DNA from: Enterobacteria phage P922
Sequence record: OR999189.1
Direction: 5' to 3' (one strand)
DNA: 64,000 nucleotides
Below the pieces are notes generated by a model that did no database searches, was not told where the DNA came from, and was given only the letters and a program-made list of their open reading frames with translations. Positions 26,204 through 26,987 of this stretch are shown here, one piece after another. A program made the translations under genes and the position numbers. Position 1 is the first letter of the stretch. Every line of letters starts with the position of its first letter.

Positions 26204-26784
26204 TGATTAAATTGGTATTCGCTTATTCTCCAACTAAAACGGTTGAAGGCTTTAATGAATTAGCATTCGGTTTAGGTGATGGTTTACCATGGGGACGAGT
26301 TAAAAAGGACCTCCAGAATTTTAAAGCTCGTACTGAAGGCACAATTATGATTATGGGTGCTAAAACGTTCCAGTCATTGCCTACATTACTTCCAGGTCGT
26401 AGACATATTGTAGTGTGTGACCTTGAGCGTGATTATCCTGAAACTAAAGACGGTGATTTAGCACATTTCTATATTACTTGGGAGCAATATATAGATTACA
26501 TTTCTGGCGACGAAATTCAAGTATCAATTTCTGGTTCGCCATTCAAGACTATTCTTGATCAGAATTCTAATGTAAGTGTAATTGGCGGACCTGCTCTACT
26601 ATATGCTGCATTACCTTATGCGGATGAAGTAGTTGTTTCTCGCATCGTTAAAAGGCATCGTGTTAATTCAACGGTTCAATTAGATGCAAGTTTTCTTGAT
26701 GATATAAGCAAACGTGAAATGGTTGAAAGTCATTGGTATAAAATAGATGAAGTAACAACCCTTACGGAATCAGTATATAAATGA
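26203..26784 (+). CDS. frd: dihydrofolate reductase
   Basis: 193 aa; [32 protein letters not shown] matches T4 Frd. Confidence 0.9.
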
Positions 26785-26987
26785 GCAATAAATTAAAAGT
26801 TAAGGATGTTCCTAATGCTATGGCTCTTTTTATTTGTCGGCAGATGCATCAAGGGCCTATGACACCAAAACAATATCTTAAAGGTGAGCGTTCTTTAGGA
26901 TTTACTCGCAAAGCAAAACAAATGGTTAAATTAGGATATAAGCCTAACTTTGCCAAATATCCTTCTACATATTCTTGGATGAACTAA
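26781..26987 (+). CDS. small basic protein (68 aa) inserted between frd and td
   Basis: ATGA overlap with frd stop and TAATG overlap with td start; Lys-rich. Confidence 0.45.

Follow-up and report, generated by a model that had tools for sequence, protein, structure and literature searches.

The junction between the dihydrofolate reductase gene frd and the thymidylate synthase gene td of Enterobacteria phage P922 (accession number OR999189.1; the 64 000 nt stretch that was analysed is referred to here as the window) contains a 68-codon ORF, termed ORF68 in the following, and comparison with related phages shows that this junction is a polymorphic slot with three states, i.e. it carries ORF68, carries a gene of the family phrog_1928 or is empty as in T4. 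The explanation that we favour as a whole is that ORF68 is an accessory cassette which is translationally coupled to its neighbours, has spread laterally and has a biochemical role of its own, to which we would assign a probability of about 0.6. That the gene is real, that the cassette is built as described below and that it has spread laterally are jointly considered highly probable. As a sequence feature ORF68 is ordinary, i.e. a catalogued hypothetical gene, and we found no sign of a new type of system. Its population genetics, with a slot of three alleles and an apparently recent inter-genus sweep, are of mild interest, and the protein is predicted to have an orphan fold.

Junction anatomy and coding status of ORF68

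ORF68 is located on the plus strand at 26781–26987, starts with ATG and was identified both from the ORF list and, by profile match, as a member of PHROG 9550. It is preceded by frd (26203–26784, +; 193 aa, annotated as dihydrofolate reductase in matching records) and followed by td (26987–27847, +; 286 aa by ORF translation, intronless). The initial annotation had described a Lys-rich ORF between the two genes with a stop/start overlap at either end, and both points hold: the frd stop codon TGA (26782–26784) lies inside the ATGA (26781–26784) with which ORF68 starts, and the ORF68 stop codon TAA (26985–26987) shares one A with the td start codon ATG (26987–26989), forming TAATG. The window therefore contains two overlaps in series, i.e. 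ATGA and then TAATG, with a 204 nt cistron between them. The direct overlap of frd and td that is published for T4 was likewise found in NC_000866, where frd at 145109..145690 and the td end at 145112 overlap by 4 nt with nothing in between; this junction is empty and T4 proper does not harbour ORF68.

When the window is aligned with T4, the difference is exactly 204 nt and the 5 nt direct repeat AATGA is found at both edges, with the left copy (26780–26784, +) spanning the frd stop and ORF68 start and the right copy (26986–26990, +) spanning the ORF68 stop and td start. As aligned to T4, the indel reads ..TATATAAATGA[GCAAT...GAACTAATGA]AACAATACC.., and the upstream sequence ..ACGGAATCAGTATATAAATGA is, together with the ATGA context, common to the T4 td start and the ORF68 start. 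The ATGA is intrinsic to ORF68 in all T4-like lineages, as it belongs to the first two codons (Met-Ser, ATG AGY).

ORF68 is a real and conserved protein gene by several criteria: tblastn with ORF68 gave matches in 237 phage records, the HMM of PHROG 9550 matched with E = 1.3e-45 (154.5 bits; residues 1–68 on profile positions 1–68 of 68), and dN/dS is 0.07–0.19 across diverged copies, with synonymous sites near saturation. Between the window and the Klebsiella phage Potts1, the differences in ORF68 by codon position are 12/7/25, i.e. dominated by third positions, which points to purifying selection. At this base composition, 68 codons without a stop would be expected by chance with a probability of ~0.006 per start, and conservation in 237 records, dN/dS and the PHROG 9550 match indicate that ORF68 is more than a chance run. 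The suggestion that it encodes a small basic protein is thereby borne out by its relatives and by dN/dS, and neither of the findings named in the initial annotation as refuting it, i.e. presence in T4 proper or lack of conservation and of a coding signature, was made.

The stretch might instead be a chance ORF, a functional RNA or a spacer, given that the JS98 and JS10 records leave it unannotated, that several records annotate a 42 aa fragment only and that one copy, in SH7, is frameshifted. We regard this as extremely improbable and in effect already refuted by dN/dS of ~0.1 with third-position bias and by homologs that are recognizable at the protein level down to 29 % identity. An RNA element in particular was considered and rejected, as Rfam gave no match (a lone hit of 12 bits, i.e. 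noise, where the gathering score is 84) and all z-scores for folding were above zero, with the ORF68 RNA (z = +0.40) folding no better than shuffles.

The encoded protein (7.9 kDa) contains ten Lys and three Arg residues versus one Asp and one Glu, giving a pI of 10.26. The family was sought among billions of proteins, both with a word index and with exhaustive profile searches, and consists of 40 clusters at 90 % identity with 11 representatives at 50 %, whose members have 66–108 aa and follow the pattern K-x-K-V..P...L.L.R..HQ...KG...FGF....M..LGY.P. HMMER, run exhaustively with the profile against 1.84 billion representatives, gave 11 clusters only, from which P0026 (1402 aa) was discarded as a tandem-repeat artefact. 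Basicity extends across the family, with a pI of 9.75–10.6 and a net charge of +7 to +17 in 32/32 aligned members, and this strong positive charge is the sole family-wide property. ORF68 matched no Pfam family at E ≤ 1 and neither NCBIfam models nor PDB sequences, and no paralog was found within the window.

The protein search proposed in the initial annotation thus led to a family without assigned function, as expected there, but also to a gene that is routinely annotated already, in more than 100 relatives of T4: dozens of published Tequatroviruses encode the protein with 100 % identity, and ORF68 is the same gene as PHROG 9550, without any difference, a family to which neither a function nor a Pfam domain, an NCBIfam model or a solved structure is assigned. 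It is already known in the sense that it is catalogued in PHROGs and in public records as 'hypothetical protein', e.g. GRNsp7 USW07492.1, fPS-65 g232c and ELT1_256, and the papers searched contain no mention of an ORF between frd and td, RB32ORF229c or phrog_9550.

Annotation of the homologs is inconsistent. The JS98 and JS10 records omit the gene altogether, whereas in Potts1 (gp178), EI (EI_253) and IME339 only a 42 aa fragment is called from an internal Met. The label is 'DUF4858' in Shinka and 'flagellar biosynthesis protein' in vB_EcoM_P8, neither of which is supported by the Pfam scan of ORF68 (E ≤ 1). The copy in SH7 (L005, ~3085–3095) is unannotated and contains an A-run that is longer by one A (ACACCAAAAAAAATATC versus ACACCAAAACAATATC), which shifts the frame; either this copy is a pseudogene or the additional A is a sequencing error in the homopolymer.

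States of the frd–td slot and probable exchange between phages

To survey the slot, the window's own flanks were joined as in T4 and used as query, to which ~575 phage records align. ORF68 is present in ~136 T-even and Dhakavirus records at ≥ 96.6 % nucleotide identity, and a phrog_1928 gene in ~363 records at ≥ 90 % identity. The junction is empty in only ~54 records, among them ~20 T4 laboratory records and ~25 Dhakaviruses. The empty junction of T4 is a minority state and an exception among its relatives, which corrects the T4-centric picture, since of the three alleles of this slot, the textbook overlap of frd and td represents the rare, empty one. The view of ORF68 as an unusual 'extra' insertion into the T4 junction is not supported, given that the same gene occurs in ~136 T-even and Dhakavirus genomes. 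Being absent from T4 and most T-evens, it appears to be a dispensable accessory gene of T4-like phages.

In T2, RB14, RB18, RB27, wV7, ime09 and many others, an insert of ~417 nt is found at the same point and encodes the 115 aa protein RB32ORF229c, i.e. the phrog_1928 member, which is described in the RB14 record as 'flanked by 9 bp repeat'. Its gene is located at 1908..2255 in RB14 (L008) and at 1906..2253 in Bas39 (L009), at a junction equivalent to 26784/26987 of the window. The comparison with T4, T2 and RB phages that had been proposed therefore gave a mixed result: T4 is empty as expected, while T2 and RB14 are filled by phrog_1928; nor is ORF68, which is present in ~136 records, peculiar to the phage studied here. 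None of the Tequatrovirus records inspected carries both cassettes; H130, suggested as a two-cassette record by its span, carries phrog_1928 only. Among other genera, Jiaodavirus Merci has the arrangement frd-[1928-like]-td, and Dhakavirus junctions are filled in JS98 and empty in AnYang, Bp7, IME08 and others.

The phrog_1928 protein is named 'putative homing endonuclease' in the BASEL records, and RB32ORF229c had no Pfam domain at E ≤ 0.1. In RB14, two extra A's precede the junction ATGA (L008 ~1880–1918; TATATAAAAATGA), because of which frd is annotated there with 615 nt instead of 582 nt and overlaps RB32ORF229c.

Evidence for exchange of the ORF68 allele is given by an island of near identity that covers ORF68 and the first 44 nt of td (26779–27030, +), as delimited by comparison with JS98 and with Tequatroviruses whose flanks are divergent. 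Relative to JS98, ORF68 shows 1.9 % nucleotide divergence, versus 22.7 % for frd and 22.8 % for td; mismatches are closely spaced as far as 26778 and again from 27031 onwards, with no more than five in 26779–27030. The corresponding values for ORF68, frd and td are 0.5, 11.4 and 4.8 % for ELT1, 0.5, 6.2 and 6.4 % for fPS-65, and 1.5, 13.7 and 3.4 % for SH7. Identities of the ORF alone are bimodal, with 136 records at ≥ 95 %, two at 80–90 % and 26 at 60–80 %. The flanks of T4, which does not have ORF68, are more similar to those of the window than the flanks of ELT1, which does (92.5 versus 90.5 % identity). Since synonymous sites change freely in older lineages, constraint at the nucleotide level cannot explain the island, and the straightforward reading is that a single ORF68 allele was recently spread laterally by recombination between Tequatrovirus and Dhakavirus backgrounds. 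The phrog_1928 cassette also forms an identity island, i.e. Bas39 and ZCEC15 differ at 6/392 positions in the insert, 84/587 in frd and 88/550 in td.

The ORF68 island has its left edge at most 2 nt away from the ORF68 start. As homologous recombination would place this edge more randomly, a more specific insertion mechanism is possible, and the cassette may have been inserted in such a way rather than by ordinary homologous recombination. Co-conversion driven by I-TevI or SegG was considered as the cause of the island and rejected, as it would homogenize td exon 1 or frd, which remain 5–23 % divergent.

Free-standing homing-endonuclease genes of the seg and mob types are found in T-even phages as promoter-less cassettes between conserved genes (PMC2988022, Edgell et al. 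review), and ORF68 resembles them in that it is promoter-less, rides on an existing polycistronic message, is patchily distributed across genera and shows much stronger sequence conservation than the core genes on either side. It might accordingly be asked whether ORF68 is a selfish or passenger cassette, i.e. the relic of a homing endonuclease or DNA carried along by nuclease-driven gene conversion, the more so as the unrelated phrog_1928 gene occupies exactly this site between 9 bp repeats and forms an identity island too, and as a segG-like ORF lies 3.2 kb upstream. Unlike seg and mob genes, however, ORF68 has no GIY-YIG or HNH domain in Pfam, NCBIfam and PDB searches, has no other nuclease motif or Pfam domain at E ≤ 1 and is too small with only 68 aa; its homologs are equally small in unrelated phages, and no long tract of co-conversion reaches into frd or td. 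Strong purifying selection over saturated synonymous distances, conservation at full length into unrelated phages, the lack of homogenization in td exon 1 and frd and the absence of an intron from td of the window also argue against it, so that we consider it unlikely that ORF68 is nothing but a selfish element or a relic without benefit to the phage.

Gain of ORF68 here and its loss in T4 are both compatible with the data. The arrangement of the window would become that of T4 if the sequence between both copies of AATGA, together with one copy, were deleted, just as a deletion between the 9 bp repeats would empty the phrog_1928 allele. A footprint of loss in T4 was sought in the 5' end of td, where a 44 nt tract (26987–27030, +) occurs in two haplotypes among T-evens, i.e. 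Phe6/Leu12 in the window, JS98, AnYang and SHFML-11 and Asp6/Phe12 in T4 and RB14. This tract shows 0/44 mismatches between the window and AnYang, the junction of which is empty, while the rest of td is 25.5 % divergent; the 5' haplotype therefore recombines independently of the remaining td. The Phe6/Leu12 haplotype is common in Dhakaviruses without the ORF and is also found beside the phrog_1928 allele (SHFML-11), whereas all empty junctions of Tequatroviruses, T4 included, are joined to the other haplotype, so that there is no evidence in this tract of T4 having lost an ORF68 allele. The ORF68 block of Tequatroviruses may have come from a Dhakavirus-like donor. The 44 nt tract was also considered as part of the mobile block, which was rejected, as it occurs without ORF68 in Dhakaviruses and in some Tequatroviruses with the phrog_1928 allele.

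The td gene is split in T4, GRNsp7, ELT1 and fPS-65, with I-TevI present in T4, ELT1 and fPS-65. Since ORF68 occurs with both intron-containing and intronless td, the two polymorphisms are unlinked.

Association with td and proposed translational coupling

Homologs with 59–81 % amino acid identity are found in two Marfaviruses of Klebsiella, Potts1 and EI, as well as in the diverged metagenomic T4-like contigs L015–L018. In all six, the homolog lies directly upstream of td and overlaps its start, frd is located one to two genes further upstream, and the genes in between belong to phrog_1928. The overlaps around the homologs in these lineages are ATGA, GTGA, TGATG and TAATG. The identities of ORF68 are comparable to those of td (74–78 %), which suggests a long vertical co-inheritance of the pair, while frd reaches 38–50 %. 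The conserved partner of ORF68 is thus td and not frd, and in the T4-like lineage the upstream position of ORF68 next to td is of long standing, in an array of the form frd-[phrog_1928]x1-2-ORF68-td.

Neither promoter-like nor terminator-like sites flank ORF68, their frequency in the sequence being no higher than in shuffles, and the RNAs of the two junctions are unstructured (folding z = +0.36 and +0.97 versus shuffles). On these grounds ORF68 is probably a promoter-less cistron of the frd–td message. In the junction strings compared across lineages, the sequence TGGATG, which corresponds to the codons Trp66-Met67 of ORF68 (26976–26981, +), is found 8–11 nt ahead of the td start codon in each of the six lineages with an adjacent td that were compared; its GGA is located 7 nt upstream of the td ATG, a spacing that is kept in all of them, is Shine–Dalgarno-like and would be the ribosome-binding site of td.

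Our model for the cassette is as follows. ORF68 would sit inside the prereplicative frd–td transcription unit without a promoter or terminator of its own. Its start lies in the same ATGA context as the td start of T4, and the codons at its end (TGG ATG AAC TAA-TG) contain both the Shine–Dalgarno-like GGA and the stop/start overlap for td. Ribosomes that terminate on frd would reinitiate on ORF68, and those terminating on ORF68 would reinitiate on td; with successive reinitiation of this kind, gain or removal of the cassette would leave td expression intact.

The close association with td also gives rise to the main rival of the accessory-factor reading, i.e. that ORF68 works together with thymidylate synthase, either as a small subunit or modulator of the enzyme or of the dNTP complex, or as a leader cistron that sets the level of td. 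ORF68 adjoins and overlaps td in every T4-like lineage examined, whatever lies upstream, the two genes are similarly diverged in distant lineages, and the conserved Trp-Met codons provide td with the GGA, with an ending in WM being universal only in td-adjacent members. However, remote homologs (29–46 % identity) in phAPEC8-like and other large phages are embedded in groups of small accessory genes and have no td in their vicinity, td is expressed without ORF68 in T4 and in roughly three quarters of the sequenced T-evens, and tight overlaps are normal in T4-type genomes, so that the adjacency may simply be inherited. A td-linked role is therefore regarded as doubtful, and we retain the reading of ORF68 as an accessory factor.

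Predicted fold, possible function and comparison with other cassettes

An AlphaFold model of ORF68, based on an alignment of 32 sequences, has a pLDDT of 86.6 and predicts three short helices (residues 13–24, 29–39 and 43–49). No structural relative of this model was detectable in the PDB or in BFVD, and no similarity to a solved domain with a helix-turn-helix or another small DNA-binding fold was found. As the strong positive charge is conserved across the family, binding to nucleic acid or to an acidic surface is the most likely activity, i.e. ORF68 would bind a polyanion such as nucleic acid or an acidic protein surface. It would then act as a host-dependent fitness factor, such as a modulator of host takeover or of counter-defence, rather than as an enzyme of nucleotide metabolism. 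This biochemical assignment, a binder of polyanions or acidic partners with host-dependent value, is a tentative guess, to which we give considerably less than an even chance. Since the protein is short, dispensable, under purifying selection, probably subject to a recent inter-genus sweep and confidently predicted to adopt a fold without relatives, it is nevertheless a reasonable candidate for interaction with the host.

A bolder proposal would be that ORF68 founds a polycationic family with an orphan fold which confers a strong host-dependent advantage, for example by anti-defence activity or by tuning of thymidylate synthesis. We consider this rather improbable, but if true, such an advantage would explain how a single allele swept across Tequatrovirus and Dhakavirus backgrounds that are 5–23 % divergent, at a site shared with a competing cassette.

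Among known cassettes, a close parallel is the phrog_1928 gene, which shares with ORF68 the ATGA at the frd stop/td start, a short direct repeat (AAATGAAAY in phrog_1928) and an identity island, and which resides together with it in the Marfavirus-like array frd-1928-1928-ORF68-td. Unlike ORF68, the phrog_1928 protein has 115 aa, and its gene does not overlap td but supplies it with a separate spacer and upstream region. No kinship between the two was found, as tblastn of the RB14 protein against the window gave no match and the proteins belong to different PHROGs (9550 and 1928).

The PeSL cassettes of hyperplastic regions in T4-type genomes, reportedly described by Arbiol et al. in 2010, are said to consist of an ORF flanked by an early promoter and a stem-loop. 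ORF68 does not conform to this type, with no promoter-like or terminator-like site adjoining it and folding at its junctions no better than in shuffles.

Other parts of the window also differ in gene content from T4. Just upstream of the ORF68 junction, two small ORFs (25614–25949 and 25958–26203, +) lie between frd.1 (25361–25603) and frd, encoding a DUF7247 protein of 111 aa (Pfam E = 5e-43) and a phrog_3183 protein of 81 aa, respectively; T4 has neither of them, frd.1 being directly followed by frd, i.e. there is another indel at this place. Similar extra ORFs near frd.1–frd are found in SH7, Bas39 and ELT1. Further upstream, a 210 aa ORF (22906–23538, +) is located between the gp59-like (22251–22904) and gp32-like (23594–24502) ORFs, and on account of its position and size we take it to be a candidate counterpart of T4 segG, which encodes a GIY-YIG homing endonuclease.
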